Counted from the first letter of the stretch, positions 5,722-50,104 are shown. The stretch: DNA of 64,000 nt from an uncultured Candidatus Saccharibacteria bacterium (GCA_964464735.1 CAYXKF010000001.1:35690-99689), one strand, 5' to 3'. Translations and numbers: made by a program. Notes: generated by a model not told the origin, from the sequence alone.

Positions 5722-5792
5722 AGCGGGGTGGAGTAATGGTAGCTCACCGGGCTCATAACCCGGGGGTGCCCGTTCGAATCGGGCCCCCGCAA
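5722..5792 (+). tRNA. tRNA-fMet (initiator, anticodon CAU)
   Basis: Cloverleaf folded by hand. The anticodon loop is CUCAUAA. Three consecutive G:C pairs at the base of the anticodon stem (GGG/CCC), A11:U24, and a mismatched 1:72 pair (A.A) are initiator hallmarks. The T-loop is TTCGAAT. CCA is not encoded. Confidence 0.8.
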
Positions 5793-5845
5793 CACGATCA
5801 TATTTTCTCGTTGATTTTTTGCCCCGCTTAGGGTATCTTTCTCGT

Positions 5846-5922
5846 GTCGGGGTAGCTCAGTTGGTTAGAGCGTAGCACTCATAAAGCTAAGGTCGGCGGT
5901 TCGATCCCGCCCCTCGACACCA
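5846..5922 (+). tRNA. tRNA with CAU anticodon (elongator Met or lysidine-modified Ile2); 3' CCA encoded
   Basis: Hand-folded with acceptor GTCGGGG/CCTCGAC containing one G.U pair, D-arm GCTCAGTTGGTTAGAGC, anticodon loop CTCATAA, T-arm GGCGGTTCGATCCCGCC, and ACCA at the 3' end. Confidence 0.8.
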
Positions 5923-5976
5923 GCGGTGGATTTTTTGCATACGTATGCTAAGATGCGCCGGTACAATTACATAGAT

Positions 5977-6050
5977 GCAGTCGTAGCTCAACTGGTTAGA
6001 GCACCCGCCTGTCACGCGGGAGGTTGCGGGTTCGAGTCCCGTCGACTGCG
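5977..6050 (+). tRNA. tRNA-Asp (anticodon GUC)
   Basis: Acceptor GCAGTCG/CGACTGC, anticodon loop CTGTCAC, T-arm GCGGGTTCGAGTCCCGT, discriminator G. Confidence 0.85.
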
Positions 6051-30813: not shown

Positions 30814-33291
30814 ATGCCGCGAGCTAAAACAAACTCAAAAGACGAATCACCTGAAGCGACACCGCGCGAAGGTATTGTTCCAATCAATATCACCGCTGAA
30901 ATCAAGGAATCGTTTTTGGCGTATTCGATGTCAGTCATCACATCACGCGCATTGCCTGACGTGCGCGACGGGCTTAAGCCGGTACATCGTCGTATTTTAT
31001 ATTCGCTTCACGAAAACGGCTTGACGGCTGCGGCAAAATTTCGAAAGTCCGCATTTATCGTGGGTGACGTGTTAGGTAAATATCACCCGCATGGCGATAC
31101 GTCAGTATATGACTCGATGGTCAACATGGCGCAAGATTTCTCATATCGTTATCCTTTGGTGTGGGGGCAGGGAAACTTGGGATCAATCGACGGGGATGCT
31201 CCGGCCGCGATGCGTTATACCGAAGCAAAGATGTCTCGTTTGGCAGGCGAACTGTTGCGCGATATCGACAAAAATACGGTTGATTTTCGCCCCAACTATG
31301 ACGAAACCCGAAACGAACCAGTGGTGCTTCCAACTGTTGTGCCAAGTCTTTTGCTTAACGGAACGCTTGGTATCGCCGTTGGTATGGCAACCAATATTCC
31401 TCCGCATAACTTAGGCGAACTAATCGACGCGTGCGTAACACTGATCAACGATCCAAAAGCGACCAACGAAGATTTGCTTGAATTTGTCAAAGGCCCTGAT
31501 TTTCCAACGGGCGGCGTCATTTACGGAAAGACCGATATTAAGCATGCGTACACAACTGGACGCGGCGGTGTCGTAACACGCGGTGAGGCAACTATTTCTG
31601 ACGGCGCACGCGGCACATCGCAGATTGTCATAACGTCGATTCCGTATCGCGTAAACAAGTCGGCCTTGATCATGAAGATCGCCGAACTGAAGATGGAGAA
31701 AAAACTTGAGGGTATTAAGGAACTTCGCGACGAATCAACAACCGACATCCGCATCGTGATCGAACTAAAAACCGGCGCGCATCCACAAAAGGTATTGAAC
31801 TATTTATATAAGCACACCGACCTCGAGCAAAACTTCAACTTTAACATGGTTGCATTGGTCGACGGCATCCCGCAAACACTGTCGCTGCGCGATTTTTTGA
31901 CCGCATTTCTTGATCACCGCATGGTGGTGATCCGTCGCCGAAGTGAGTTTGACCTGGCAAAAGCAAAAGCGCGCGAACATATTTTAGAAGGGCTAACCAA
32001 GGCACTTGATCATATTGACGAGATCATCAAGTTAATCAAAGCATCGGCCGACGTAAATGTCGCGCGCGAAAACTTGATGAAAAAATTTAAGTTTTCAGAA
32101 ATCCAAGCAAACGCGATTCTGGAAATGAAACTGCAAAAACTTGCCGGTCTTGAACGAAAGAAAATCGAAGAGGAGCTTAAGGAAGTTCGCAAGGTCATTG
32201 CATATCTTGAAGATTTGCTTAAATCGCCTAAAAAGATGCTTGCCGTCATTGAGGACGAACTGGTCGAGATCCGCGAAAAATATGCCGACGAACGGCGAAC
32301 CAAAGTGGTCAAAGCAGCAGTCGGAAGTTTGTCCGACGAAGACCTGATTCCTGATACCCAAGCCGTATTGGTGTACACCGCCGACCAATATATTAAGCGC
32401 GTTGATCCGTCAGAATTTCGCACCCAAAAGCGCGGTGGTGTGGGCGTGTCTGACAACAGCATGAAAGAAGAAGACGTCATTACGCACATTTTGACATCTT
32501 CGACGCATAGCGATTTGTTATTCTTTACTGACCGCGGAAAGGTGTATCAAATCAAGATGTTCGAACTTCCTGAAGGCAAGCGCACAACGCGCGGAAAATC
32601 AATCCGCAACTTCTTGGGACTATCTGATACCGAACGGGTTACATCTATTTTGGCAATGCCAAAAGATGTTAAGAACTCGTCGGTAAACCTGATGCTTGGT
32701 ACCAAGGGCGGTACCATGAAAAAAGTCGCAATCGACAGCTTTAAGCAGGTGCGCGCAAGCGGCATCATTGCGATTTCGCTTGATGACAAAGACGAATTGT
32801 TGGGTGCACACTTTGTTGATAAGGACGATACTGTTTTGTTGGTATCGGCCGACGGGCAATCGATTCGATTTGAAGAATCTGATATTCGTGTTATGGGCCG
32901 AACAGCCGGAGGCGTGCGTGCCATGAAGCTTGATAAGGATGATTACATTGTTGGCATGAACGTTGCGGGTAAAAATACTGATGCAAAAACGACCGTACTA
33001 GTGCTTGCACAAAACGGATACGGAAAGCAGACCGAAATTTCAGAATACAAGGTGCAAAACCGCGGCGGATCAGGTATTAAAGTAATGCAAGTAACCGACA
33101 AGACCGGCTTGGTGGTTGGCGTACAAATTGTAAACAACGAGACCGAATTGATTGCTATTTCGCAAAAAGGGCAGGTGATTCGAACTGAACTAAAATCTAT
33201 TCCGGTACTTTCACGCGCAACGCAAGGTGTACGCGTTATGAAGCTTCGAGAAGAAGGCGACAAGGTAGCTTCGTATACGCTTGTCGAATAG
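30814..33291 (+). CDS. gyrA: DNA gyrase subunit A
   Basis: [28 protein letters not shown] with the active-site Tyr region, a C-terminal beta-pinwheel with a GyrA-box-like QKRGGVG. 825 aa. No gyrB is adjacent. Confidence 0.95.
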
Positions 33292-33315
33292 TAATCCCCT
33301 AAAAATATTTTTACC

Positions 33316-33864
33316 ATGTCGTATCCGTGCTATACTTTTGCCATGCACGCATTTGAAGCTGCGGTAAACGAACTTGCCTTACAACAAACCGACCATGTCA
33401 TGATTGCGGGAATACTTCCGACGTGGCACGAACTATTGCTTGTCATACAACGCCTTGATGTTACCAAGGGCAGTGTTTTGATACCTCAAGCTGATTTGGG
33501 GCGTGCAAAACACATGATGCAATCAATCAATCAGCAAGGGCTTGCACATGCCGTTATTGCATATCAAGGAATGATTGACGCACCGTATGGTGCGATCGTA
33601 AAAGAGGAAAGCGTTGACGCGTTATTATACGTGCCTCAAAAAAGTGATGATATTGATGTGGCGGCGCAAGAAATAAAACGCATCGTAAAACATGGACGCA
33701 AGGTTGCCATTATTGAACAAACGCCGGCTCATCCACTTGCAAAAGGAATTGTTTTGCATTCGGTTGCTGCGGCGCTCCAAAAAGCTGGCTTCTCGTTGGT
33801 GCACACTGCAACTGCTGCACGCACGCATACCGTTTCGGTATTGGTTTCGCCAAAATCTGTATAG
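33316..33864 (+). CDS. hypothetical protein
   Basis: 182-aa soluble ORF with no recognizable motif. Confidence 0.4.
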   Translation: MSYPCYTFAMHAFEAAVNELALQQTDHVMIAGILPTWHELLLVIQRLDVTKGSVLIPQADLGRAKHMMQSINQQGLAHAVIAYQGMIDAPYGAIVKEESVDALLYVPQKSDDIDVAAQEIKRIVKHGRKVAIIEQTPAHPLAKGIVLHSVAAALQKAGFSLVHTATAARTHTVSVLVSPKSV

Positions 33865-33901
33865 CGTATCAGTCGGCGATGCGATATAATTACACTATAG
33901 T

Positions 33902-35281
33902 ATGGGCAAGCTCTCGACATTTCAATTAATACTGGGCGGCGTCTTTGTTGCTTTTATTATCATTGGATTTTTATATTTCACATCGGCGGGCAAAAAAAAT
34001 GCCAACGCGCCAAAAGGGCAATACAGCGGTACGGTCACTATTTGGAGCATCATTCCGCGCGAACTTATCCAGGCACCGATTGCAAAATTCCAAGCTGACA
34101 ACGAAGCGGTGCGCATCACGTACCGGCAAATTAACGAAAGCGAAATCACGGCCGAAGTCATTAACGCCTTAGCGCAAGGCACCGGGCCCGACATTTTGAT
34201 GTTTCCAGCCGAACGGTTAATCCAGCTGCGCGGTATCTTATACCCGATTTCATATGCCAACATTTCGCAGGACGTATTCATGCAAAAATTTATCGATGGC
34301 GCGTCGGTCTTAATGCAACCCGAAGGCATTTATGGGCTGCCCGTTTTGGTTGACCCGATGGTCATGTATGTGAACCGTGATATTTTAAATAGTACATTTA
34401 TTGCAAACGCTCCGCAGTATTGGGACGAATTTCCTAATTTGGTACCAAATGTTACGCAAAAAAATAATGCCGGACTTATTACCCGTTCGACTGTGGCACT
34501 TGGCTTTCCGTTAAATATCAGTCATGTTGCCGACATTATGACCGCGCTTTTCATGCAGTTGGGCAGCACCATGGTTGCAACGGATGATTTTGGCGAAACG
34601 GGCGGGGGGATCCAATACCGCCTTGCACTTCGTGGGCCGGGCAAATTTAGTGCGCGCCCTATTGCCGACGCGTTTGAATACGCAGTTGCATTTTCGGATC
34701 CGGCAAAAACAACGTATACCTGGTCGGCAGGGCTTCCATTGTCACGCGACTATTTTGTGGGCGACCGGTTGCTTGCATACTTTGGATACGCCAGCGAATA
34801 TGGCATACTGCGTTCGCTTAATCCAAACCTAAACTTTTCGATCGAAATGCTGCCGCAGATGCGCGTCAGTTCAACCAAGGCGACTTTTGGAAAAATCTAT
34901 GCCTTGGGCATGACCAAAAAATCGCAAAATGTCGCTGCGTCATTCGCGCTGATGAACGCGATCGTGCAGCCTGATGTCATGCAGCCGGTTTATACTTCCA
35001 TGGGCTTGCCGCCGGTATTCAAGTCATCGCTTGCCGCCATGCCTAATGATCATCGTTCGACTGTCACGCGGCAGTCCGCCCTTATTACCAAGTCGTGGCT
35101 TAACCCGCTTGTTGAAGCATACGATACTACCGTTATTCAAAGTTTGCAGCGTGTCCTTTCGGGAGAATTGTCGCCTGCGCAAGTTGCCAACGAAATGGAC
35201 ACCGCACTTGCTCCGCTGTTCGATAGTGTTAACGAACAAAATGCTAAAAATGCTTCGGCTGCCGCCGCGGCAAAACAATAA
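33902..35281 (+). CDS. ABC transporter substrate-binding protein (family 1, sugar-type), orphan
   Basis: N-terminal anchor, then the periplasmic-binding-protein pattern (TIWSIIPRELIQAPIAKFQADN...GTGPDILMFPAERL). No permease or ATPase genes are adjacent. Confidence 0.75.
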   Translation: MGKLSTFQLILGGVFVAFIIIGFLYFTSAGKKNANAPKGQYSGTVTIWSIIPRELIQAPIAKFQADNEAVRITYRQINESEITAEVINALAQGTGPDILMFPAERLIQLRGILYPISYANISQDVFMQKFIDGASVLMQPEGIYGLPVLVDPMVMYVNRDILNSTFIANAPQYWDEFPNLVPNVTQKNNAGLITRSTVALGFPLNISHVADIMTALFMQLGSTMVATDDFGETGGGIQYRLALRGPGKFSARPIADAFEYAVAFSDPAKTTYTWSAGLPLSRDYFVGDRLLAYFGYASEYGILRSLNPNLNFSIEMLPQMRVSSTKATFGKIYALGMTKKSQNVAASFALMNAIVQPDVMQPVYTSMGLPPVFKSSLAAMPNDHRSTVTRQSALITKSWLNPLVEAYDTTVIQSLQRVLSGELSPAQVANEMDTALAPLFDSVNEQNAKNASAAAAAKQ

Positions 35282-35299
35282 GCTTTTGTCGTAAGGATC

Positions 35300-36592
35300 A
35301 TGTGGTATAATGCTTCTTACATGAATTTTGCCCAGGCCAAGACTATTACTGGCTATAACCAATTTTTTAAATGCATCATTATTGCGATCGCTTTTTTTAC
35401 TTGTTTCTTTTCGATCGCCTTGGTGTCGCATGCCGAAGGGGGAATTGTTTTTACTGGTGTCACCTTAAAACCCGATACCGCCGCGGCAAACGGAACGTAT
35501 ATTTTGTCAGGCAATCTTAAGCTGCTTAGTGGCAGTACAAATGGCACAAGCGCGCCCGTAGGCTTAACGCTTGTCGACTTGTCGACTGGCGGTACACAGA
35601 CGTCAGCGCTTGGTACATATACGGTTGGTGCCGCGGCTCCTTTTTCGGTCAAAGGGCTTACGGGTACTTCGTATCGCTTTAATCATTCAATAAATAACCA
35701 GACTGTTGCAGCGTTTACTATTATTTCGTACACCGGTCCTGCGGCAATGGCGCTTACCCCAACATATTCTGACGTAAAGCTCGAGGCCGATTCTGTCAAT
35801 CAGGGTAAATATATTTTGTCAGGAAAAATGAATCTAGCCGGCGGCACCGGTACTTTTCAGTTTACCTCGATCGAAACAAAGGGAACAGGTGAGACTGCTT
35901 TTGCGTCAAAAGCACAAACTGGATCACCAAGCTTTGGTGCTACAGCTGCGTTCAGTGTAAATAATTTAACTAAAACTTCGTACGAATGGTATCCAAAAGT
36001 TACCTATAATAATCAGGTGTATACTGTGGGAACTCCACAGACAATATCGGTTGGGGGAACGAACCAAGGTACCAATCCGCCAAACCAAAACCAGCAAAAT
36101 TCCCAAAATAATAATCAAAGTAATCCGACAACGCAAAATACCACACAAACGACTGTGGCCGGTGGCAACGGACTTTTTGATGAATTTAAAAATGGCCTTG
36201 TTCACTGCGGCCGAAAAGTTGCCGACCCGGCGCGGGGTATTACGACAAAGCCGTGCACATTTGACGACTTAATTATTTTGGCAAGCCGCATTATCCGCTT
36301 TGCGATGTATCTTATTGTAGTTGCAGCAGCGATCGTCGTTATATGGATCGGTTGGATTTACTTATCGGCAGGTGGCAATACCGAAAAGGTCGCCAAGGCA
36401 AAACATGCGGCAACCAGTTGGGTTATTGGCGTCGTGTTGGTCATGTGCGCTTGGCTAATTGTCAGTTTCGTATTGCGAAGTTTCTTAAGCAAAGAGTATC
36501 TTCAAAAGCATCCGAACGCATTATTGCTTGAAAAAGTGGATGACGCATCGACACAAAATAAATCATTACAAGACATTATTACCGGACAATAA
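35300..36592 (+). CDS. secreted beta-rich protein fused to a C-terminal VirB2/TrbC-like pilin hairpin
   Basis: Signal peptide, a ~300-aa Thr/Gly/Ser-rich repeat region, a Q/N-rich linker, then FDDLIILASRIIRFAMYLIVVAAAIVVIWIGWIYLSAGGNTEKVAKAKHAATSWVIGVVLVMCAWLIVSFVL. That tail is two TM helices separated by a short charged loop. The start may instead be the ATG at 35321. Confidence 0.6.
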   Translation: MWYNASYMNFAQAKTITGYNQFFKCIIIAIAFFTCFFSIALVSHAEGGIVFTGVTLKPDTAAANGTYILSGNLKLLSGSTNGTSAPVGLTLVDLSTGGTQTSALGTYTVGAAAPFSVKGLTGTSYRFNHSINNQTVAAFTIISYTGPAAMALTPTYSDVKLEADSVNQGKYILSGKMNLAGGTGTFQFTSIETKGTGETAFASKAQTGSPSFGATAAFSVNNLTKTSYEWYPKVTYNNQVYTVGTPQTISVGGTNQGTNPPNQNQQNSQNNNQSNPTTQNTTQTTVAGGNGLFDEFKNGLVHCGRKVADPARGITTKPCTFDDLIILASRIIRFAMYLIVVAAAIVVIWIGWIYLSAGGNTEKVAKAKHAATSWVIGVVLVMCAWLIVSFVLRSFLSKEYLQKHPNALLLEKVDDASTQNKSLQDIITGQ

Positions 36593-36594
36593 TT

Positions 36595-37449
36595 ATGAAA
36601 AAGTTTACCTTTGTATCAGCAGTATGTACAGTTGCCACTTTTGCCTTTTTGATTACTGGGCATTTGGTAATGGCCCAAACAACGCCGGATGCGCAGTTTA
36701 GTACCACATTCTCGAATGCGTCACTTCTTCAACAAACAGCACCTTCAGATACTTCTAAGTATGTCTTGCAGGCAACTGCAAAAGTTATTAATAATTCAAA
36801 TGGGGCTATAATAAACCCTGCCAACGCGGCATTCCCAGCATACTTTGTAAAGATAACCGGCAGCAATGGGACAAGTATCGAATCTGCCCATAACGCAGCG
36901 CATGCATTTGGCAGCCCATTTACGTTTACCGAAACAAATCTTTCGTTGCCGCCGCCCTATACTTACCAATTATCTATTACATATCAGGGGCAAAAAAAGG
37001 TAGTAAGTTCGCCGCAGACCATAGCTTTGACTGGAGGTGCTGACAGTAATGGTAATCAACCTTTTAATCCTGCAGGAAGCCCGCAGGGAACTGACTCGGA
37101 AGCTTTCAATCCTGCAGGTTCACCAGAGTCGCAGGATCAGGCGTTAGAACTTGATTCTACTTCAAAACATCTACTTGAAAATCCACTAAAGGTAAATTCG
37201 ATCCAAGAACTAATTGCCGAAATTCTTAAGGTCATTTTGATCATTGCGATCCCCGTCATTGCGATCTTTATTGTCATTGCCGGATTCCGTTACGTCATGG
37301 CGCGCGGCCAACCGAGCGAGCTTGAAGTTGCGCATCGTAATATTTTGTTCGTGATCGTAGGTGCTGGGCTTATCATCGGATGCGTGCTCATTGTCGACGT
37401 GATCACCACGACCATTAATGATATTAAGGCTGATGTTCAGCAACAATAA
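36595..37449 (+). CDS. secreted protein with C-terminal VirB2/TrbC-like pilin hairpin
   Basis: Signal peptide. An internal tandem repeat FNPAGSPQGTDSEA/FNPAGSPESQDQA. The C-terminal IQELIAEILKVILIIAIPVIAIFIVIAGFRYVMARGQPSELEVAHRNILFVIVGAGLIIGCVLIV is a TM-loop-TM hairpin. Confidence 0.6.
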   Translation: MKKFTFVSAVCTVATFAFLITGHLVMAQTTPDAQFSTTFSNASLLQQTAPSDTSKYVLQATAKVINNSNGAIINPANAAFPAYFVKITGSNGTSIESAHNAAHAFGSPFTFTETNLSLPPPYTYQLSITYQGQKKVVSSPQTIALTGGADSNGNQPFNPAGSPQGTDSEAFNPAGSPESQDQALELDSTSKHLLENPLKVNSIQELIAEILKVILIIAIPVIAIFIVIAGFRYVMARGQPSELEVAHRNILFVIVGAGLIIGCVLIVDVITTTINDIKADVQQQ

Positions 37450-37453
37450 TCGT

Positions 37454-38071
37454 ATGCGCATATTTGCAATCTTCGTCATATTTTTTACCACGTTCATTCC
37501 TTCGGCATTTGCACAGCAAGGGCAGGGAAACCCGTATTACCAGTCTCCGTCGCAATCAGGTAATCCGGCCTACAATCCGGCAAATGATCCTTTGCTTAAC
37601 ATGCAAGGGCAAGTTAATTTAAACAATACCGAAATGGCCGGATGGTTTGCACAAACCAATGCCGATGTAAGCTCGATCCAAAACGACCCGGCATGGAGTC
37701 CGATTATTACCGTGCAGGGAAACGGCCAAACGACTGGGGCACCCGTTGATACCGCAAGTGCCTGTAAAACAATTAAGATCAAAAGTATTGCCACACTGGC
37801 AGACTTTGTCACTTGTACCATTTCGCGATCATTAATACCGCTTATCTTTGCCTTAGGCGTTATGTTTTTAGCATGGGGTACTACTATGCTGGTTTTGAAT
37901 GCCGGCAACGAAGAAGCGCGCGAAAAGGGTAAAAGCATCATGATCTGGGGGTTGCTTGGGTTCTTTGTCTTGGCATCGGTTTGGGCATTGGTAGGGATAC
38001 TGCTTCGAACCTTCCAGCTTGATACCTCGACCAAGGCGCCCGTACCGTGCTTCCAAGACGGGACGTGCTAA
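37454..38071 (+). CDS. secreted protein with C-terminal VirB2/TrbC-like pilin hairpin
   Basis: Signal peptide MRIFAIFVIFFTTFIPSAFAQQ and a Q/N/P-rich region. The C-terminal LADFVTCTISRSLIPLIFALGVMFLAWGTTMLVLNAGNEEAREKGKSIMIWGLLGFFVLASVWALVGILL is a TM hairpin. I chose the ATG at 37454. Confidence 0.6.
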   Translation: MRIFAIFVIFFTTFIPSAFAQQGQGNPYYQSPSQSGNPAYNPANDPLLNMQGQVNLNNTEMAGWFAQTNADVSSIQNDPAWSPIITVQGNGQTTGAPVDTASACKTIKIKSIATLADFVTCTISRSLIPLIFALGVMFLAWGTTMLVLNAGNEEAREKGKSIMIWGLLGFFVLASVWALVGILLRTFQLDTSTKAPVPCFQDGTC

Positions 38072-38151
38072 TAGAAATATGGTATACTAGCCCAAGAGTT
38101 CGAAAACGGGCTACGATTATTAATTAGTATTTAGTCATTTTAGTTTCACGT

Positions 38152-38514
38152 ATGAAAAAGAAACTTATCGCGCTGGGCTTGGTGTTGGTGCCGTCAATGG
38201 CATTTGCACAGGCAACTGCGTTTACTATCCTAGGAACTGTCGCGCTATTTATCAAGCGTGCGATCCCTATCTTGGTTGCAGCCGCAATCCTGTTCCTTAT
38301 CTTCAATGTAATCCGCTATGTCATTGCGGGTGATGCCGAGAAGCGCGAGGATGCGAAGGGCTACCTTATTTGGAGTTTCGTTGCATTGGCATTCTTTGCC
38401 TTGGTATTCGGTTTGATCAATGTATTGGCGTCAACTTTTGGTATCAACCAGGGTCAAGACATCAACTCGACCGGTGGTGGCGCAAACGATTTCATCCCGA
38501 CTGTTTACTACTAA
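38152..38514 (+). CDS. VirB2/TrbC-like pilin (short form)
   Basis: 120 aa. A signal peptide with AFAQA cleavage site, then TM1 ILVAAAILFLIFNVIRYVIAG, charged loop DAEKREDAKG, and TM2 YLIWSFVALAFFALVFGLINVLAS. Confidence 0.65.
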   Translation: MKKKLIALGLVLVPSMAFAQATAFTILGTVALFIKRAIPILVAAAILFLIFNVIRYVIAGDAEKREDAKGYLIWSFVALAFFALVFGLINVLASTFGINQGQDINSTGGGANDFIPTVYY

Positions 38515-38521
38515 GTAATTC

Positions 38522-38827
38522 ATGCTTGCGTGGTTTATTCCCATTACAGTGCGCGCCCAAGAGGTATTAGTACCTCAGGTGGTCAAGTTGATGCAAAGCC
38601 TCAATAAGCACGTCATAAACCCATTGGTTAAGGTATTGTTTGTTGTCGCATTGTTGGTATTTGCCTGGGGAGTCATCGAGTTCTTTTTGGCAAAACAAAC
38701 TAACGAAAGTCTTGAACAAGGACGGCAACACATGTTGTGGGGGATTGTTGGAATGGCGATCATGGGGGGAGTGTTTGGTATCATGTACTTCATCATTTCG
38801 ACCCTTGGCGTAACCTATATCCACTAA
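38522..38827 (+). CDS. VirB2/TrbC-like pilin (short form)
   Basis: 101 aa. Signal peptide (VRAQE), TM1 LVKVLFVVALLVFAWGVIEFFLA, loop KQTNESLEQGRQH, TM2 MLWGIVGMAIMGGVFGIMYFIIS. Confidence 0.6.
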   Translation: MLAWFIPITVRAQEVLVPQVVKLMQSLNKHVINPLVKVLFVVALLVFAWGVIEFFLAKQTNESLEQGRQHMLWGIVGMAIMGGVFGIMYFIISTLGVTYIH

Positions 38828-38845
38828 TAAAACGAGCCACGAAAA

Positions 38846-38877
38846 AAGCCCCTGTATTTTGCAGGGGCTTTTAGTTT
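38846..38877. terminator. bidirectional Rho-independent terminator between convergent genes
   Basis: aaaaaa-GCCCCTG-tattttg-CAGGGGC-ttttagtttt. The reverse strand also gives a hairpin plus a T-run. Confidence 0.65.
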
Positions 38878-38888
38878 TAGGCAAATTT

Positions 38889-39893
38889 TTAACTTGCCGT
38901 TTGTGGTTGAACTTTCCAGTAGTAAACAATAAATGTATCACTTACCATGGATTGCATGTAGTAGCTGTAACCAGTATGGTAGTCTAACCTTCCCAGGTTA
39001 TTACTGCCATCTAAAGCTACAGCGATAACATCATTTTTTGTTACGATACCGCCGTTTCTAAAATAAAAATAAGGTTGGTAACCTTTCTCTACTTTAATTA
39101 AGCGGCGATCGTTTTGTTGTAAGTAGAACGTGTCGGCATACATCACGGAGCTGTCTTGATGCGCCATCTTTTTTTCAAGCGTATTGCTTGTTGGTGTTAC
39201 TGTTGCGTACAGCTCATCGTCAGGGCCTTTTAATTTCTTTCTGGCCGAAGAATATGCATTTTCCCGTTCTTCACGAATGCTCGTGGTGAAAGGGCGTAGG
39301 ATGTCAAAATCACTGTCTGATTTTTGTGTTTTACTCGCAGTGCTTTTTTCAGTCGGAGCTGAAAGGAATCCAATAACAACAAATATCGCTACTAATATGC
39401 CAACCGGTTTTGCCCACTTGTAGTGTTTGTCATAATACAAGAAGGTGAAAAATATGGCTACCAGTAGCATGGTCGTAAACATTGCACTCCAGGTCAGCCC
39501 TTGGTGGACGTAGGTAAAAAATCTCCAGTCGCCGTAAATGGAAAAGAATATAAGGAATGCAATTATTCCCAATATCCACCACTTAAAATTCGACCAGAAA
39601 GCTTTAATACCGTTTGTTGTAGTGTTACCACTACTCGTTCCTCCTCCGCTTGAACTGCTGCCTAAGCCGAACAGGGCAGGAATAAGAAAAAGTAGTGAGG
39701 CAACAAGAATAAGTATATAAAAAGCGGCGGGTGCCGCCAAAATGAAGAATGTCCATTTTGCAACGCTCCAATCGCTTAGTAGCCACACTAAAAGTGCAAT
39801 GACTACTGCTGCTACATATATACCTACCCATTTCCAATTACTGGTTGCAGCAGAATTGATTCTGTTGCGCGTGTTGTTGATTTGTGCTTGCAC
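38889..39893 (-). CDS. hypothetical polytopic membrane protein with C-terminal extracytoplasmic domain
   Basis: 334 aa. The N-terminal ~170 aa carry 5 TM helices and a Gly/Ser/Thr-rich loop. The C-terminal ~150 aa are soluble and Tyr-rich. It lies 13 nt downstream of the SPFH-like gene on the same strand. Confidence 0.5.
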   Translation of the reverse strand: MQAQINNTRNRINSAATSNWKWVGIYVAAVVIALLVWLLSDWSVAKWTFFILAAPAAFYILILVASLLFLIPALFGLGSSSSGGGTSSGNTTTNGIKAFWSNFKWWILGIIAFLIFFSIYGDWRFFTYVHQGLTWSAMFTTMLLVAIFFTFLYYDKHYKWAKPVGILVAIFVVIGFLSAPTEKSTASKTQKSDSDFDILRPFTTSIREERENAYSSARKKLKGPDDELYATVTPTSNTLEKKMAHQDSSVMYADTFYLQQNDRRLIKVEKGYQPYFYFRNGGIVTKNDVIAVALDGSNNLGRLDYHTGYSYYMQSMVSDTFIVYYWKVQPQTAS

Positions 39894-39906
39894 TTTGTTT
39901 AATTTT

Positions 39907-41016
39907 TTAAGTGTTAACTAATGATTGAACCCCAATTGCTCTTAATTGGCTTTGGGGAAGCATGTAGTTGAAAAGTGCCTTGTCGTCAACCTTACCGTTT
40001 TTGTCGGTAAATTCTGCGATAAGTAGTTTTGCAACTTCAGCTTCGCCTTCACCATGCTTGATGGCAATTTCTTTTTCTGTTTCTGCCTGCAGAAGCTTCT
40101 TCTTTAATATGGTTATTAAAAGAATTTCACGCAATAAATCACGAGTTGCTTCGTCGGAAGGGTTCATATACACAATAGCGGTATTATGAGTTTTGAATCC
40201 GAATTCAGCATCAAAACCTTGAGCTAGTTTCTTGTAGCTCTGATCTTCGATCATCTTTTTTCGCTCGTCGTCACTGTACGATTGGAAGGTGTAATTAAGT
40301 ATGTCGAATATCGGTGCGATTTTTACGCTGTCAGTACTAAGAAGCATTTCTGCCGTCTGGTCGTTTCCAAAATCACGCAAGGCAGGTTCGTACGAGGTAT
40401 GGAGTACCTGATAAAAACCACCTGGAGTGCCTGATTGAATACGATAGTCAGTAGATTCGATATCAGTGAGAATCATTACGTTGAACTTTGCGCCTTTCTC
40501 AAATAATTCCAATTCGTTGTAAAGTATCCCTACGTTAGTTATTTCTTCGCGAAGAATTCCAGGATCCAGTTTTTTTTCTATAAGTCTGGGTTTTTCGCCT
40601 TCCTGGGTTGAAGGAGGTATTTCCTGGTAACTTACAACTTCTTTTGAGCGGACGCCGGGCATCCAACTGCTGTAGCGATAAAGCTTAAGAAATTTGTTAA
40701 CGAATGATTCCTTTGGTAATTGCGCCAATTCATCAGGAGTAAGGTTGTCGAAAACTTTTCCTGAAGTGTGGATAAGCCGGCCTCTATGCCTACTTTCTCC
40801 AAGCACTCCAACGAATCTTCCGAATAGGGTATATACTACAACTTCTCCGGTTCTTTGTGGGCCCCGTCCCCAAAATATTTCTTTCGTCATCCCAAAAAGG
40901 TAGGCGAAAGGTAGTTCTAATGTAAGGAGGCTTTTTATAGCTTCAATGATGATTTTCCCTAAAGACCAGTCATTAGCTTGGGCCTCTTCGATGCGGTTTG
41001 GATTAATTTGATTCAT
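39907..41016 (-). CDS. hypothetical protein, possibly SPFH/band-7 (flotillin)-like
   Basis: 369 aa. N-terminal GEVVVYTLFGRFVGVLGESRHRGRLIH resembles the start of an SPFH domain. The C-terminal LQAETEKEIAIKHGEGEAEVAKLLIAEF resembles the flotillin/HflK EA-repeat helix. The assignment is tentative. Confidence 0.4.
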   Translation of the reverse strand: MNQINPNRIEEAQANDWSLGKIIIEAIKSLLTLELPFAYLFGMTKEIFWGRGPQRTGEVVVYTLFGRFVGVLGESRHRGRLIHTSGKVFDNLTPDELAQLPKESFVNKFLKLYRYSSWMPGVRSKEVVSYQEIPPSTQEGEKPRLIEKKLDPGILREEITNVGILYNELELFEKGAKFNVMILTDIESTDYRIQSGTPGGFYQVLHTSYEPALRDFGNDQTAEMLLSTDSVKIAPIFDILNYTFQSYSDDERKKMIEDQSYKKLAQGFDAEFGFKTHNTAIVYMNPSDEATRDLLREILLITILKKKLLQAETEKEIAIKHGEGEAEVAKLLIAEFTDKNGKVDDKALFNYMLPQSQLRAIGVQSLVNT

Positions 41017-41170
41017 CCTTTTCTGTTTTATTTTTGTTTACAAATATTGTTTTTTCAAAGGGCTATCAATACGATAGCTTGGTAGTATTATATCATATTT
41101 AAACTATAAAGTCAAGGTAGGGGAACGTCAAAAAAGCCTTATTTTTCAATAAGAATTACCCAAAACCGGT

Positions 41171-41623
41171 CTATTCGACCTTGACGATGATTTTTTTATC
41201 AATACCTAAAAAGCTGCCGGCGTGGATTGCCGAAAGCAGTAAAAGACAAATAAAGTAAATAACGTAGTGGTTTACCAGGTATCCGCCGTCGGTTGTGTAC
41301 GGAAAAGTAAGGGTCGGTAAATATAAAAGCATCATGATGATCATACCAATGGTCGTAAAAAAGCGCAGATAAAAACCTAAGATTACGGCAATGCCGACAA
41401 CAACTAAAATCCAAGGAATTGCTGCGTCAAAAATACCAACGATCTTTGCTGATGCAAGCCAGTCGTACACTTGGGGCAGTGTTGCTGATTTTGCAAACGT
41501 TGATTGTAGGCTCCAGGCGGCGTCCTTAAGCGCGCTGATGCCTTGGTAGGTCAAAAGCCATCCGATTGCGATGCGCAAAAATAACACAGCGCCTTTAGTG
41601 AAGTTGGAAATTTCCATACGCAT
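41171..41623 (-). CDS. DoxX-family membrane protein
   Basis: 150 aa with 4 TM helices. The N-terminal LFLRIAIGWLLTYQGISALKD fits the DoxX RIxxGxxFxxxGxxK pattern. Confidence 0.55.
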   Translation of the reverse strand: MRMEISNFTKGAVLFLRIAIGWLLTYQGISALKDAAWSLQSTFAKSATLPQVYDWLASAKIVGIFDAAIPWILVVVGIAVILGFYLRFFTTIGMIIMMLLYLPTLTFPYTTDGGYLVNHYVIYFICLLLLSAIHAGSFLGIDKKIIVKVE

Positions 41624-41704
41624 AAGTATACATCACTCGAAACGATAATAAAACAGGGGACATTGATATAGGGCGTCCTCTCTGCTATAGTACAACTCGT
41701 TTTA

Positions 41705-41776
41705 GGCGTGGTGGCGAAGTGGTAACGCTTCGGTCTGCAAAACCGACATGCGCGGGTTCAATTCCCGCCCACGCCT
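41705..41776 (+). tRNA. tRNA-Cys (anticodon GCA)
   Basis: GGCGTGG-TG-GCGAAGTGGTAACGC-T-TCGGT-CTGCAAA-ACCGA-CATG-CGCGGGTTCAATTCCCGC-CCACGCC with discriminator U. Confidence 0.85.
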
Positions 41777-41824
41777 CAAGGTTGATTTTACGCAGAAATG
41801 CAGTAAGATAGCTTTCGTGTTTAA

Positions 41825-41905
41825 TGCCGGGGTGGTGAAATGGCAGACACACCTGCCTTAGGAGCAGGCGCCGCAAGGCATGGAGGTTCAAGTCCTCTCC
41901 CCGGC
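41825..41905 (+). tRNA. tRNA-Leu (anticodon UAG), class II with long variable arm
   Basis: GCCGGGG-TG-GTGAAATGGCAGACAC-A-CCTGC-CTTAGGA-GCAGG, a long variable arm CGCCGCAAGGCAT, then GGAGGTTCAAGTCCTCT-CCCCGGC with discriminator A. Confidence 0.85.
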
Positions 41906-41931
41906 ACATGTGGAATACACGTATTCCAACA

Positions 41932-42004
41932 TCCGCCCGTAGCTCAGTTGGTAGAGCAGTCGCCTCTTAAGCGAACGGTCCTTGGTTCGAATCCAAGCGG
42001 GCGG
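41932..42004 (+). tRNA. tRNA-Lys (anticodon CUU)
   Basis: CCGCCCG-TA-GCTCAGTTGGTAGAGC-A-GTCGC-CTCTTAA-GCGAA-CGGTC-CTTGGTTCGAATCCAAG-CGGGCGG with discriminator A. There is one mismatch at the top of the anticodon stem. Confidence 0.8.
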
Positions 42005-42015
42005 ACAGACAGTCA

Positions 42016-42098
42016 TGCCCGAGTGGCGGAATGGTTTACGCAGAGGACTTAAAATCCTTCCCCTTCAACGGGTTGTGGGTTCGACTCCCACCTCGGGC
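42016..42098 (+). tRNA. tRNA-Leu (anticodon UAA), class II with long variable arm
   Basis: GCCCGAG-TG-GCGGAATGGTTTACGC-A-GAGGA-CTTAAAA-TCCTT, long variable arm CCCCTTCAACGGGTT, then GTGGGTTCGACTCCCAC-CTCGGGC with discriminator A. It is followed by a T-run. Confidence 0.85.
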
Positions 42099-42099
42099 A

Positions 42100-42423
42100 C
42101 TAGTTTTTTTCTTCGGCTATAAGTCGATAAATAACATCGCGCTTCTTGGCGCCGTCATCAATATGCCATGCGTATGTCTTAGGAAGCATGCCGCGCGTAT
42201 TCTTTTTTAAGTATGTCTTGATATCGACAATATGCTTTTGCAAAAAGCGCAGCGCATCTTTTTCGTACTTTTCGGGTAATACGCTTACACCGACGGTTGC
42301 GTGCGAAATATCCGGCGAAAGTTCAAGGCGTGCGACGGTGATAAGTGAATCACGGTTGGCATTTTTAGTAACCCATTGGGCAATCTGTTTTTGCAATTCT
42401 TTTTCAAGCGCTTCTTTTTTCAT
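42100..42423 (-). CDS. rbfA: ribosome-binding factor A
   Basis: 107 aa. SLITVARLELSPDISHATVGVSVL matches the RbfA core. It sits immediately downstream of infB on the same strand. Confidence 0.8.
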   Translation of the reverse strand: MKKEALEKELQKQIAQWVTKNANRDSLITVARLELSPDISHATVGVSVLPEKYEKDALRFLQKHIVDIKTYLKKNTRGMLPKTYAWHIDDGAKKRDVIYRLIAEEKN

Positions 42424-42425
42424 AA

Positions 42426-43895
42426 TTATTCAAAGTGTGATGCGATTAATGTTTCGCCACCGTTAAATTCGATAGGCGATTCGACCAGTAAGCCACATTC
42501 GGTTTCGGCTCGCGCAACGTCGGCTTCAATTTTGCCAAGCTTGATCATGGTTATTTTACCTTTGCCAATGCGTTCGTCGCCGCGTTCAATCTGAATTAGT
42601 TCGTCTTGTTTAAAAAGCCCGTCAGTAATACGGCAACCCAACACGGTACCGCTTTTAGTTGCACTAAATACCTTAAGCACTTTTGCCTTGCCAGTGATAA
42701 TTTCAACCGGTTCGCGCACGGTGCGCTTTTCACGTTCGGCCTCAAGCCATTCAGTCAATTTGTAAATGATGCTAAATTGCTCGACGGTCGCATATTGGCG
42801 TTCGTCCATAGTAAGCACGCGGCTGTCTTCTTTGACGTTAAAACCAAAAACGATCGAGCCGGTGCTGCTAGCTGCTAGTTGTATGTCAGATTCGTTAATG
42901 TCGCCGATGCCAGTCTTGATGATCTTAAACAAAATGTATTCGTTGCTGCGCTTTTTAATTTCGCTTTCAATTGCTTCGATGCTGCCAAACGTATCGCCTT
43001 TGATGATAATTGGTACGACTAAGCGCTTGTCGTTTTCATCGACTTGTTGCTGTACTTTTTGGCTGACCAATTCGCGATACACACGCAGTGCATCCTCGGC
43101 CTCTTTTTTAGTAGCGTAGGTTTCAAAGTGCGCACCAACGCGGGGAAGTGCGTCAAAACCAATTACTGTTACTGGGCTTGACGCGCTTGGCTCGATAATT
43201 GCCTTGCCTAAAAAGTTTTCCAAAATGCGTGTGGTCGACATATTGCCCTCGATCACGATAAAGCCGCCTTTGGGGATGATTCCTTGCTTAATAATAAGTG
43301 TTGCTGAAATGCCACGCTTTTTATCAAGGTGTGATTCGATCACGAAGCCTGATGCGGGAACGGCAGGGTCATGGGTAAAGTTTTCCATTTCGGCTGAAAG
43401 CAAGATCATGTCAAGTAATTCACTAATGCCTTCGCCGGTTTTTGCCGAGACATTAATGGCGGCCACAGTTCCGCCGTAGCCTTCGACAAACACGCCATGC
43501 TCCATAAGATCAGCTTTTACTTTTTCAGGGTTTGCGTTTGGTTTATCGATTTTGTTGACGGCAACAATAAAAGGAACTTTTTTATCCAAAATAGTATTGA
43601 TCGCTTCAACTGTTTGCGCCTTAACCGAATCTTCGGCCGATACAACCAATATTGCAATATCGGCAACGTTCGCACCGCGGTAGCGCATGTTGGTAAATGC
43701 TGCGTGACCTGGCGTATCAATAAAAGTAATTTTTTCGCCTGCATGTTCAACTTCGTATGCCGAGATGTGCTGCGTAATGCCGCCCGCTTCGGTCGCGACC
43801 ACATTTGATTTGCGAATATAATCAAGAAGCGTCGACTTTCCGTGGTCGACGTGTCCCATGATTACTACAACTGGTGATCGCTTAATGGTGCTCAT
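42426..43895 (-). CDS. infB: translation initiation factor IF-2 (short form lacking N-terminal domains)
   Basis: The G domain has VVVIMGHVDHGKSTLLD, DTPGHAAF and NKID. 489 aa. Confidence 0.95.
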   Translation of the reverse strand: MSTIKRSPVVVIMGHVDHGKSTLLDYIRKSNVVATEAGGITQHISAYEVEHAGEKITFIDTPGHAAFTNMRYRGANVADIAILVVSAEDSVKAQTVEAINTILDKKVPFIVAVNKIDKPNANPEKVKADLMEHGVFVEGYGGTVAAINVSAKTGEGISELLDMILLSAEMENFTHDPAVPASGFVIESHLDKKRGISATLIIKQGIIPKGGFIVIEGNMSTTRILENFLGKAIIEPSASSPVTVIGFDALPRVGAHFETYATKKEAEDALRVYRELVSQKVQQQVDENDKRLVVPIIIKGDTFGSIEAIESEIKKRSNEYILFKIIKTGIGDINESDIQLAASSTGSIVFGFNVKEDSRVLTMDERQYATVEQFSIIYKLTEWLEAEREKRTVREPVEIITGKAKVLKVFSATKSGTVLGCRITDGLFKQDELIQIERGDERIGKGKITMIKLGKIEADVARAETECGLLVESPIEFNGGETLIASHFE

Positions 43896-43900
43896 AGTGT

Positions 43901-44374
43901 TTATGCACTGTTAAGTGCAATATGGATTGCTGTCTCTTCTTCTTCGCTTAAATCGAAATCAACCGTGCCATTTTTAATTTGCTTGGTAAACAATTGCAAT
44001 CGTTCGCGTACTGATAAAAAAGTAATGAGGTAGCCTGATTTTTGTTCATTCAATAATGCTAATGCAAAGCTTTGGTTGCCGCCTAGATCGGGAAGGGCGT
44101 TAAATTTCACAAACCCAGTGTAGCGAATAGCGCCTTGCACTTTTGTTTGAAGTTCGGCGATAAGTGCCTCGGCATTTGCTTGTTTGCGCTGAAGTGCCTT
44201 GATGTCGGCACCAAGCAAGCGAATGACATCTTCAAGCGAATCAGCCTTTTTTCCGCGAAGCAGCTTGCTGATGCGCATGCCGTTAAGTGTCGTGATAATG
44301 CACGCGATAAATGATAGAACCAAACTGATTGCAAGAATGATAAGTTGGGTTGACATATAGGGGCGATTATACAT
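43901..44374 (-). CDS. DUF4446-like membrane-anchored protein
   Basis: 157 aa with an N-terminal TM helix. IRYTGFVKFNALPDLGGNQSFALALLNEQKSGYLITFLSVRE resembles the DUF4446 conserved core (RYn.F...GGnQSF.lALLD). It is 5 nt upstream of infB. Confidence 0.5.
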   Translation of the reverse strand: MYNRPYMSTQLIILAISLVLSFIACIITTLNGMRISKLLRGKKADSLEDVIRLLGADIKALQRKQANAEALIAELQTKVQGAIRYTGFVKFNALPDLGGNQSFALALLNEQKSGYLITFLSVRERLQLFTKQIKNGTVDFDLSEEEETAIHIALNSA

Positions 44375-44409
44375 ATATTTAGCAGAGTTTCAATGTATTT
44401 ATTACCACT

Positions 44410-45624
44410 ATGCGCTTATTTACCCGCAAACCACTATATTTTGACAGTGCGTCTGGGCAGCCAGTATCCGCAAAGGTGCTGCGTTACATGCGTTCGATTC
44501 AAGAAACTTCCGATATTAACCCAAGCGGCCTTTGTGGCGTGCATCAAAAGTCACGCGCACTTCTTGAAGATGCACGCAAAAGTATCGCCAAAGAAATAGC
44601 CGCATTGCCGCGCCAGGTTGTTTTTACGCACAGCGGGACCGAATCAAATGCTTTGGCCGTAGGTGGTATGTTGTCAAAACTGTTTAGCGAAGGGAAGCGT
44701 GACATGCATGTTATTACAACTGCAATCGAACATAGCTCAGTGCATCATTTGCTTGATCAGTACGCATCCGTGTATTCATTTACTGTTCACTTTGCATCTT
44801 TAGAAAACGGCCAAGTCGATATTAAAGCTCTGCGTGAAATGATCATTGCACTTAAGCCGGTGTTGATTTCGATACAGTATGTAAACAGCGAAACTGGCAT
44901 TATTCAAGATATTCGCGAAATTGCGCGTGCTATTCGTCATGCAAAAAAACAAGATCAAACGATCGAAACGCTGTTGCATACGGACGCAGCACAGGCACAA
45001 TACTGTGATTTGCATATTGACCGATTGGGCGTTGACTTTATGTCATTTTCAAGCGGAAAAATTGGCGGCCCACGGGGTGCTGCTGCGTTGTTTGTTCGCG
45101 ACCAAAAAAATATCATGGGCTATTTAGGTAAAGGTTCGCAAGAATACGGGCTATTTTCGGGAACCGAAAATGTGTTGGCAATTGCCGGCTTTGCGTATGC
45201 GTTTTCGTTGGCTCGTGATAACTACGAACAAAAAGCAAAACAACTTGCAGAGCTTCGAAGCTATCTTATAACCCAACTTCAAAAAGATATTCCTGAATGT
45301 GAAATCAACCAGGCAGCTTTAGTTGATATGCAATCACCGCATGTTGTGTCGGTTTCGATCCCCAATGCGCTTTCGGAACAATTGGTGATCGAACTTGATG
45401 CAAGGGGAATTGTCAGTTCGGCAAAGTCAGCATGCGAGTCGTTTGACGGTGGTCCGTCGCATGTCATCCGTGCGCTGTATGGTAACGTGCGTGACAGCTG
45501 GGGAACCGTGCGATTTTCGTTTGATAATTCTATTTCAAAAAGTGATGCTCGGTATGCGTCAAATGTTTTAGGTAAAACAATCAAAAAGATACGTAATATC
45601 CAAAGCCGTTTTAAGATAATTTAA
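44410..45624 (+). CDS. cysteine desulfurase family protein (class V aminotransferase, IscS/NifS-like)
   Basis: HTDAAQA and the PLP-lysine region SFSSGKIGGPRGAAALFV. 404 aa. Confidence 0.85.
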   Translation: MRLFTRKPLYFDSASGQPVSAKVLRYMRSIQETSDINPSGLCGVHQKSRALLEDARKSIAKEIAALPRQVVFTHSGTESNALAVGGMLSKLFSEGKRDMHVITTAIEHSSVHHLLDQYASVYSFTVHFASLENGQVDIKALREMIIALKPVLISIQYVNSETGIIQDIREIARAIRHAKKQDQTIETLLHTDAAQAQYCDLHIDRLGVDFMSFSSGKIGGPRGAAALFVRDQKNIMGYLGKGSQEYGLFSGTENVLAIAGFAYAFSLARDNYEQKAKQLAELRSYLITQLQKDIPECEINQAALVDMQSPHVVSVSIPNALSEQLVIELDARGIVSSAKSACESFDGGPSHVIRALYGNVRDSWGTVRFSFDNSISKSDARYASNVLGKTIKKIRNIQSRFKII

Positions 45625-49710: not shown

Positions 49711-49713
49711 TTG

Positions 49714-50104
49714 TGGAGATGGAGGGTATCGAGCCCTCGTACATGCATGATAACCATGCAAATCTACGTGCGTGTTTTGTTTAGGTGCCTTTCGGCATTC
49801 CGCTGTATCTTGTCATTAAACAAACAAACAAGGCACAGTATGCTGCACTGATACGATGTTGCTTCGTGCAGAATAAGCAAAAAAGTACTTAGAAATTATC
49901 AAACACGGCCTGATATGTCTAAGTGCATATCAGCGTGCTCCAAGCGCTTAGGCTCGGGCGAAAGAAGCGAATCCAAAAAATGGAGACGCTACCGCAGTTT
50001 TAGATTTTGCACTAAAATGCTGTACGCGTATTTTGACGCGCGCGACGTACGCGAGCGGCACGCATTGCATGATTATGATCATCCATGGCATTCAATACAT
50101 CCCC
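49714..50104 (-). ncRNA. ssrA: candidate tmRNA (ssrA), divergent
   Basis: It lies 88 nt downstream of smpB on the same strand. The 5' GGGGATG pairs with the 3' CATCTCC to form a 7-bp acceptor stem with G3.U70 (the Ala identity element), discriminator A, and a T-arm GAGGG-CTCGATA-CCCTC. 5' and 3' proximal segments can pair to form P2 (CATGCA/TGCATG). The internal reading frame is UAGU-GCA AAA UCU AAA ACU GCG GUA GCG UCU CCA UUU UUU GGA UUC GCU UCU UUC GCC CGA GCC UAA, giving the tag AKSKTAVASPFFGFASFARA. The total length is 391 nt. The ORF-track ORF at 49915..50208 on the opposite strand is probably spurious. Confidence 0.6.

Follow-up and report, generated by a model that had tools for sequence, protein, structure and literature searches.

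A VirB2-like pilin gene array behind a substrate-binding protein gene near gyrA in a Candidatus Saccharibacteria chromosome

Known pilin arrays and the present locus

Tandem arrays of divergent genes for VirB2-like pilins are already known from the Patescibacteria (CPR), ultrasmall bacteria that contribute much of bacterial diversity and spend their lives on the surface of host cells. A survey using the Pfam families PF18895 and PF04956 counted 441 arrays of 2–11 genes, spread over 383 assemblies and averaging 25% identity (Quinonero-Coronel et al., 2025, PMC12102498). In the same survey, pilin genes were near virB4 in 1,135 of 1,948 assemblies, and thus away from it in about 40%, while 2,474 virB4 genes were recorded in 3,035 Patescibacteria genomes, virB4 being present in most even where the pilins lie elsewhere. 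Here we describe an array located at positions 35300–38827 of a 64,000-nt stretch of DNA (hereafter the window) from an uncultured Candidatus Saccharibacteria bacterium (GCA_964464735.1, positions 35690–99689 of the 110,678-bp contig CAYXKF010000001.1). Its five genes, designated g1 to g5 in the direction of transcription, follow a gene for a substrate-binding protein (SBP) and lie near gyrA. With five genes, intergenic gaps of 2–80 nt, 17–31% identity between the paralogues and a Patescibacteria context, the locus is an array in the published sense.

A series of essential predicted pilins is encoded in the type IV secretion system (T4SS) gene cluster of Candidatus Southlakia epibionticum (Wang et al., 2023, PMC10633639). 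Both the T4SS and the pilin array are essential in this one strain tested. The array of strain ML1 (SEML1_0014–0019) resembles that of the window in its Patescibacteria origin, its PF18895 membership and its chromosomal, tandem, same-strand arrangement of 5–6 genes for divergent proteins made up of a signal peptide and a hairpin. It lies beside the genes for VirB6, PrgI and VirB4, its members are 103–185 aa long, and the genome lacks an SBP of the family found here. The window array, in contrast, follows an SBP gene near gyrA, has no T4SS gene within about 25–35 kb and includes two members with immunoglobulin (Ig)-like domains.

The classical conjugative pilins of the TrbC/VirB2/TraA type (PF04956), among them the Agrobacterium T-pilin and the F-pilin, share with the window proteins a leader, two hydrophobic helices and a short charged loop, and the two groups show weak in-register profile similarity. 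The window proteins differ from them in scoring below the PF04956 cut-off, in their monoderm host, in the multiple paralogues and in the lack of adjacent virB1, virB3 or virB4 genes, the comparison being made with plasmids of mating-pair formation type T (MPF_T). To our knowledge, N-terminal globular domains are unknown in classical conjugative pilins. The Mbov_0395-family protein, encoded by an integrative and conjugative element (ICE) of Mycoplasma, is likewise a small two-helix pilin-like protein of a monoderm T4SS, but its gene is single, lies inside the ICE and adjoins the VirB4 gene of that element. Operons for the major and minor pilins of type II secretion systems and type IV pili (GspG-H-I-J-K; PilA with FimU-PilVWXE) likewise keep a set of old paralogues in a conserved gene order; they encode a short, abundant subunit alongside others that are present in few copies and in part bear extra domains at the tip. 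Their fold is, however, unrelated, their assembly machine is another one, and the window proteins carry no class III signal peptide or N-methylation motif. Tandem divergent virB2 copies also occur in Bartonella and Anaplasma (cited in PMC12102498); their presumed role is antigenic variation of a diderm T4SS, whereas the window paralogues are conserved by position across distant lineages.

The novelty implied by the first-pass annotation, which was made from the sequence alone, is not upheld for the array as such, since tandem divergent arrays have been published (PMC12102498; PMC10633639; PMC12857230) and long N-terminal extensions are common on PF18895 hairpins, with matched proteins of up to 820 aa. 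What appears modestly new is the conserved SBP partner, the gyrA synteny, the fixed order of subunits, the internal promoter gap and the Ig-like insertions in g1 and g2; no description of an SBP-linked, gyrA-adjacent array was found in the searchable literature. The window therefore represents a second configuration of the array, apart from the T4SS-cluster type. With a probability of roughly 0.55, we read the SBP and the array as a Patescibacteria module for a heteromeric pilus or surface fibre that would be assembled by a T4SS encoded elsewhere.

Family, partner and order of the array

The open reading frame (ORF) listing confirmed five consecutive genes on one strand, separated by 2, 4, 80 and 7 nt, with g1 starting 18 nt behind the SBP gene. 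The start of g3 at 37454 agrees with a 100% identical NCBI record, P0001 (P and L numbers denote related proteins and loci). Each product ends in two strongly hydrophobic segments connected by a mixed-charge loop of 10–14 residues; this common C-terminal module of helix, charged loop and helix, noticed in the first-pass annotation, was borne out by hydropathy for all five proteins and by AlphaFold2 models for g1 and g4. Proteins g1 to g4 begin with Sec-type leaders ending in HAE, MAQ, FAQ and FAQ, so that the signal peptide originally ascribed to every gene holds for these four and not for g5.

In g1, a signal or transmembrane (TM) helix (aa 19–42) is followed by two beta-sandwiches (aa 49–142 and 153–250), a disordered Q/N/T-rich linker (aa 252–291) and the hairpin (aa 321–395; nt 36260–36484), whose helices at aa 321–356 and 361–395 have predicted local distance difference test (pLDDT) scores of 85–93 in the AlphaFold2 model. 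The g2 protein comprises a signal peptide, one sandwich at about aa 35–147, a linker with a repeated FNPAGSP motif and the hairpin at about aa 200–273. In g3, the signal peptide ending in AFA/Q precedes a Q/N/P-rich low-complexity stretch (about 96 aa), the hairpin (about aa 118–189) and a C-terminal CFQDGTC; its relatives P0002 and P0003 share this architecture at 45–48% identity. The g4 protein consists of a signal peptide ending in AFA/Q and a hairpin (aa 26–95), with helices 26–58 and 62–95 modelled at pLDDT above 90. Two cysteine motifs recur in these classes: g3, P0002 and P0003 carry a conserved C-terminal P(V/I)PCFQ(D/T)GTC with two cysteines past the second helix, and in g1-class pilins a G...C...C motif, almost invariant, precedes the first helix (G299, C303 and C319 in g1). 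Both cysteine pairs may form extracellular disulfide loops.

The VirB2/TrbC-like assignment was examined by profile searches. Relative to the curated gathering scores of PF18895 T4SS_pilin (26.6 bits) and PF04956 TrbC/VirB2 (27.9 bits), g1, g3 and g4 lie above the former, g2 is 0.5 bit under it, g5 is weak and under it, and g2 is the sole window protein that matches PF04956 (scores in Table 1). A hidden Markov model (HMM) of the hairpin family, built from relatives of the g1 hairpin, picks exactly g1–g5 among the ORFs of at least 60 aa in the window, recovering g2 at E 5.7e-18 and g5 at E 1.2e-9. All five proteins also match NCBIfam NF045849 (Mycoplasma ICE pilin-like) at E 2e-6 to 3e-3, with 17–27 bits, below its 40-bit cut-off. 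The pairwise alignment of the five hairpins that had been proposed as a check gives identities of only 17–31%, and paralogy therefore rests on the profiles, which do support it; profile matches and conservation among the five hairpins, both of which were looked for, are thus present.

Beyond the window, an exhaustive HMMER search with g1 returned 5,839 cluster representatives at E ≤0.001, nearly all aligned to g1 residues ~296–395, that is, to the hairpin and the preceding Cys...Cys motif. All 38 relatives compared match PF18895 and 12 of them also match PF04956 (E ≤0.01, best 1.8e-5), and nearly invariant G, P and W positions indicate that hairpin residues are under family-specific constraint. 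When the hairpin family was compared by hhalign with genuine VirB2/TrbC proteins from MPF_T plasmids, the two helices aligned in register across 64 columns (probability 68.8%, E 4.5e-5); the match gives support short of proof, and the compositional bias of TM helices possibly contributes to its score. A PDB sequence search with the family profile returned chance matches only. The Pfam and family-profile matches support the membership of the C-terminal modules of g1–g5 in the VirB2-like pilin superfamily as Pfam defines it (PF18895), and the pilin-family reading stands in the form of PF18895 membership together with a putative remote relationship to VirB2. Type IV (class III) pilins were rejected as an assignment in view of the AxA-type Sec leaders, the two TM helices and the lack of any N_methyl or pilin Pfam match.

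Two peculiarities were encountered among the relatives. The PF18895 pilin P0004 (123 aa; L003 5561–5932) is named "NADH:ubiquinone oxidoreductase subunit 2 (subunit N)" by JGI, which is probably a misannotation driven by hydrophobic composition. P0008 (606 aa) and P0081 (820 aa) contain 7–8 PF18895-like hairpins in series per polypeptide, an architecture not easily squared with a classical pilin of a single hairpin.

The SBP is a conserved partner and the first gene of the module rather than a bystander. SBP orthologues (28–38% identity across the genome and metagenome loci) followed by a pilin array of 3–6 hairpin genes were present in all four genome loci, which belong to different Patescibacteria lineages. 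A metagenome scan with the SBP found at least 384 relatives; the best 80 loci were examined, 53 of which had at least 1.5 kb of downstream DNA and were eligible. At least two same-strand hairpin genes lie immediately downstream of the SBP gene in every one of these 53 loci (range 2–8) and at least three in 51 of them, 4–7 being typical. Hairpin genes occur elsewhere than after the SBP in only one of the 80 loci (L013), and the relatives reached through g3 (L003 and L004) likewise show an SBP followed by a pilin array. The SBP had been described as an orphan: this is correct in that no ABC permease or ATPase gene was found beside it in the window or in the relatives, its flanks in the window being a 182-aa ORF and gyrA upstream and the pilins downstream, and incorrect in that it is no unrelated neighbour, as the 53 metagenome and four genome loci demonstrate. 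A canonical SBP-dependent ABC importer was rejected in view of the absence of permease and ATPase genes next to the SBP.

The position on the chromosome is conserved as well. The region before the SBP gene was long enough for assessment in 39 loci; in 35 of them, gyrA is on the same strand and terminates less than 2.5 kb ahead of the SBP gene. Genes for initiation factor 2 (IF-2), DUF4446 and an aminotransferase lie downstream of the array in several loci. The nearest syntenic relatives are Patescibacteria metagenome-assembled genomes labelled Saccharibacteria, Kaiserbacteria and Paceibacterota (GyrA identity in Table 1).

The synteny extends further in the window (30814–45624), L005 and L007, where a 212-aa metallo-beta-lactamase-like gene, gyrA, a small gene or methyltransferase gene, the SBP gene, the pilins, two convergent genes, IF-2, DUF4446 and a class-V aminotransferase follow each other. 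The position of the 182-aa ORF of the window (33316–33864) is taken in L003, L005 and L007 by a clear S-adenosylmethionine-dependent methyltransferase gene that abuts or overlaps the SBP start. A convergent pair, encoding a small membrane protein and a larger protein, follows the array in the window, L002, L003, L005 and L007; its coordinates elsewhere are L003 6282–8242, L005 13583–15282, L007 13517–15180 and L082 6159–7865. The pairs are not alignable between loci, and two of the larger proteins show weak SPFH/Band_7 matches (E 4e-6 in L082, E 0.009 in L003). The window genes 38889–39893 and 39907–41016 were accordingly rejected as parts of the module, there being no sequence conservation with the genes at the same position elsewhere, apart from the weak SPFH/Band_7 similarity there.

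By best sequence match, the five window genes fall into fixed position classes, namely first, second, middle, penultimate and last. The best match of g1 is the first gene of the array in 36 of 40 loci, that of g2 the second gene in 35 of 50 arrays, and that of g5 the last gene in 40 of 50. The penultimate gene is the best match of g4 in 35/50 arrays and of g3 in 28/50, the latter matching the third-last gene in another 14/50. The penultimate class has the highest cross-locus score, with a median of 71 bits vs. 59–65 bits for the other classes. The preservation of both order and paralogue identity across distant lineages indicates old, distinct structural subunits rather than variation cassettes. 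A recent tandem duplication, considered as the origin of the array, is likewise at odds with positional orthology across distant lineages.

The regions inserted between the signal peptide and the hairpin are ~275 aa long in g1, 171 aa in g2 and 96 aa in g3. Beta-rich inserts of 150–330 aa, as first ascribed to all three genes, are thus present in g1 and g2, whereas the region in g3 is shorter and, judging by its composition, appears low-complexity rather than beta-rich. The AlphaFold2 model of g1 contains two seven-stranded beta-sandwiches, with pLDDT of 70–85 in parts of the second domain. These two repeats are 38% identical to each other, and they align as one family with the g2 domain and the two domains of the 363-aa g2 orthologue of L002, which bears two sandwich copies vs. 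one in g2. P0007, which is 72% identical to the C-terminal part of g1, lacks the sandwiches, indicating that gain and loss of these domains take place over short evolutionary distances. Of 293 pilins in related arrays, only 17 reach 180 aa, and the longest has 233 aa; g1 (430 aa) and g2 (284 aa) are length outliers because Ig- or fibronectin type III (FnIII)-like sandwiches are inserted between signal peptide and hairpin. Domains of the TIG, fn3 and Big_4 families occur in relatives at the same place before the hairpin. Word-index homologue searches found nothing with full-length g1 and nothing with the beta-sandwich repeat alignment, and the emptiness of both searches indicates that the N-terminal domain of g1 and g2 is lineage-restricted by sequence. 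The models thus show predicted lineage-specific Ig/FnIII-like domains, two in g1 and one in g2.

The single terminator postulated for the whole array was recovered and proved to be bidirectional: the stem-loop between g5 and the convergent gene 38889–39893 has a folding energy of −20.4 kcal/mol on the + strand and −17.4 kcal/mol on the − strand and is common to the array and that gene. The g3–g4 gap contains an extended −10 element (TGgTATACT, 38080–38088) and a small stem (38090–38112). An automated scan for promoters and terminators detected no excess of promoter-like sites and missed both this −10 element and the terminator stem; the two were recognised on inspection of the sequence itself. 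A long gap at this junction, ahead of the penultimate pilin gene, recurs in 45 distinct arrays (median 96 nt vs. 2–18 nt at the remaining junctions). The g3–g4 gap is therefore a candidate internal promoter and leader for g4 and g5.

Two further motifs recur in the penultimate-gene gaps of related arrays. TCC[AC]CA is present in 28 of 41 distinct arrays vs. about 2 expected, mostly as (T/C)TATCCACA, which is the DnaA-box consensus (loci including L003, L030, L033, L035, L045, L053, L058, L071 and L080). Its distance from the stop codon of the gene before it is 2–20 nt, and a TTGAC-N17-TAnAnT pair follows ~10 nt downstream; the g3–g4 gap of the window itself has no such DnaA-box-like element. 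The second leader motif is GGTCG(T/A)TTATT.

What the array may assemble

If the module builds a heteromeric pilus or fibre, Sec would export the array proteins, which would then adopt a hairpin topology in the membrane like that of VirB2, their two ends exposed on the outside and their charged loop on the inner side. A T4SS of the VirB4/VirB6/PrgI type, encoded elsewhere, would extract them and polymerise them into a pilus-like fibre. The fixed order of paralogues argues that the structure is heteromeric, with one subunit forming the bulk and several specialised ones present in low copy number. The short g4 is the best candidate for this bulk or major subunit, because its class is the most conserved and is preceded by the sole long conserved gap, whereas g1, g2, g3 and g5 would be low-copy, position-specific subunits comparable to the minor pilins, likewise ordered, of type II secretion systems and type IV pili. 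Since N-termini point outward in VirB2-type filaments, the sandwiches of g1 and g2 would lie exposed on the surface or tip of the fibre as candidate host-contact domains, and so would the disordered arm of g3. The NCBIfam matches of the SBP are weak and MalE/GanS-like, which suggests that it may bind a sugar-type ligand; it would do so at the same host-cell interface.

Should this be correct, the Patescibacteria would possess a second widespread configuration of the array, SBP-linked, near gyrA and distant from T4SS genes, with a fixed order and a separately promoted penultimate gene. Testable predictions would follow on the identity of the major and the minor subunits. The SBP would be an unexpected partner, and the variable Ig-like domains would be candidate determinants of host specificity.

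Several observations weigh against a T4SS-assembled heteromeric fibre. Genes for VirB4, VirB11, VirD4 and other T4SS machinery were not found among the ORFs of at least 150 aa in the window, as the first-pass annotation had already stated for the three ATPases, and no VirB4-like or P-loop ORF of at least 400 aa was found within 8–10 kb of the SBP in 84 related loci; with T4SS genes absent from both, assembly by such a system is something that we purely infer. The one studied array, that of S. epibionticum, lies inside a T4SS cluster and lacks an SBP, and its essentiality is not simply transferable to an SBP-linked array. No pilus made of PF18895 proteins is known to have been visualised, and a 2025 review calls a pilus in these monoderms a possibility (PMC12857230). 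The curated cut-off of the classical TrbC/VirB2 family PF04956 is not reached by any window protein. The g5 protein has no convincing cleavable signal peptide, only 13 hydrophobic residues (MLAWFIPITVRAQ) preceding the hairpin region. The role of g4 as major pilin is deduced only from conservation and the promoter-like gap. Finally, confidence in the g1 model is modest, with a mean pLDDT of 63.9, and the model's Foldseek matches to FnIII/Ig tandems are weak (E ~4e-4; titin 3lpw and Bap 7c7u).

Of the alternatives, the one that survives best, while still unlikely, is a hetero-oligomeric membrane complex of 10–14 TM helices per array that would work with the SBP and independently of a T4SS in a non-canonical uptake or sensing of host-derived solutes. 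It would account for the strict linkage of the orphan SBP to the array in 53 of 53 loci without any ABC permease, ATPase or VirB4 gene nearby, and for a fixed subunit set resembling that of a stoichiometric complex. The module, however, encodes no energising component, the family shares homology with pilins whose extraction from the membrane is established, and large outward-facing Ig-like domains suit adhesion better than transport. The contrast with S. epibionticum, whose array is inside the T4SS cluster and without an SBP, would fit two configurations that differ in role. Rather improbable, in our view, is a distinct apparatus in which the SBP and five to seven ordered hairpin proteins would form a heteromeric conduit or fibre that captures host-derived molecules and passes them in. 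Kept beside gyrA across the Patescibacteria and away from T4SS genes, it would amount to a novel uptake organelle that substitutes for the ABC permeases missing from these reduced genomes, and lineage-specific Ig-like domains such as those of g1 and g2 would set host specificity.

Similarly doubtful is a variation array, that is, five interchangeable major pilins of which one, or a shifting combination, would be in use at any time, varying the pilus surface to suit different host strains or to evade host defences, as proposed for the Bartonella and Anaplasma virB2 paralogues and suggested for the Patescibacteria arrays (PMC12102498). The conservation of paralogue order and identity by position across distant Patescibacteria lineages argues against it, and neither repeats nor recombination-prone identical segments are present in what is one operon-like unit with one terminator. 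Consistent with variation are the low identity of the paralogues, which agrees with the mean and the interpretation of that survey, and the gain or loss of N-terminal domains between close relatives. The least probable reading is surface display only, with the hairpin as a mere anchor, g1–g3 as adhesins and g4 and g5 as small membrane proteins with an unrelated function: the great variety of N-terminal domains that relatives carry on this hairpin would agree with it, as would the serial hairpins of P0008 and P0081, hard to fit in a classical pilus, but most related arrays have only short members (~80–160 aa) with nothing to display, indicating that the hairpin rather than its cargo is the conserved functional unit, and the hairpin is under the constraint described above.

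Parts list and chromosomal surroundings

The features of the locus are compiled in Table 1.

Table 1. Coordinates of the array, its partner gene and flanking features in the window
Feature	Position (nt)	Strand	Basis or remark
gyrA, upstream syntenic anchor (context, not a functional part)	30814–33291	+	60–64% identity to GyrA of L005–L008
182-aa ORF between gyrA and SBP	33316–33864		No significant family match
SBP, 459 aa, membrane-anchored, SBP_bac_8/SBP_bac_1 fold	33902–35281	+	PF13416 E 1e-22; PF01547 E 2.7e-11
g1, first-position pilin, 430 aa	35300–36592	+	PF18895 37.9 bits; AlphaFold2 model
g2, second-position pilin, 284 aa	36595–37449	+	PF18895 26.1 bits; PF04956 16.8 bits, E 0.008
g3, middle-class pilin, 205 aa	37454–38071	+	PF18895 35.6 bits; identical to P0001
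g3–g4 gap, sole long intergenic gap of the array, candidate internal promoter/leader for g4–g5	38072–38151	+	Sequence reading
g4, penultimate-position minimal pilin, 120 aa	38152–38514	+	PF18895 33.1 bits; AlphaFold2 model
g5, last-position minimal pilin-like hairpin protein, 101 aa	38522–38827	+	PF18895 16.1 bits, E 0.012; NF045849 E 0.0016
Bidirectional intrinsic terminator	38844–38872	.	13-bp stem between A-run and T-run
Downstream convergent genes	38889–39893 and 39907–41016	-	No family match for the window versions

The remainder of the window is housekeeping chromosome, encoding GyrA, IF-2, FtsH, serine hydroxymethyltransferase, RecG, histidyl-tRNA synthetase, a peptide chain release factor, CTP synthase, FtsEX, tRNAs and the transfer-messenger RNA (tmRNA). 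A mobile element or ICE was rejected in view of this gene content; relaxase, integrase and VirD4 genes were not found in the window. The tRNA clusters of four and three genes and the tmRNA gene, at 41705–42099, 5722–6050 and 49711–50104, are ordinary chromosomal features. The two minimal genes of the array, g4 and g5, were also found together on one 1.2-kb Logan contig.

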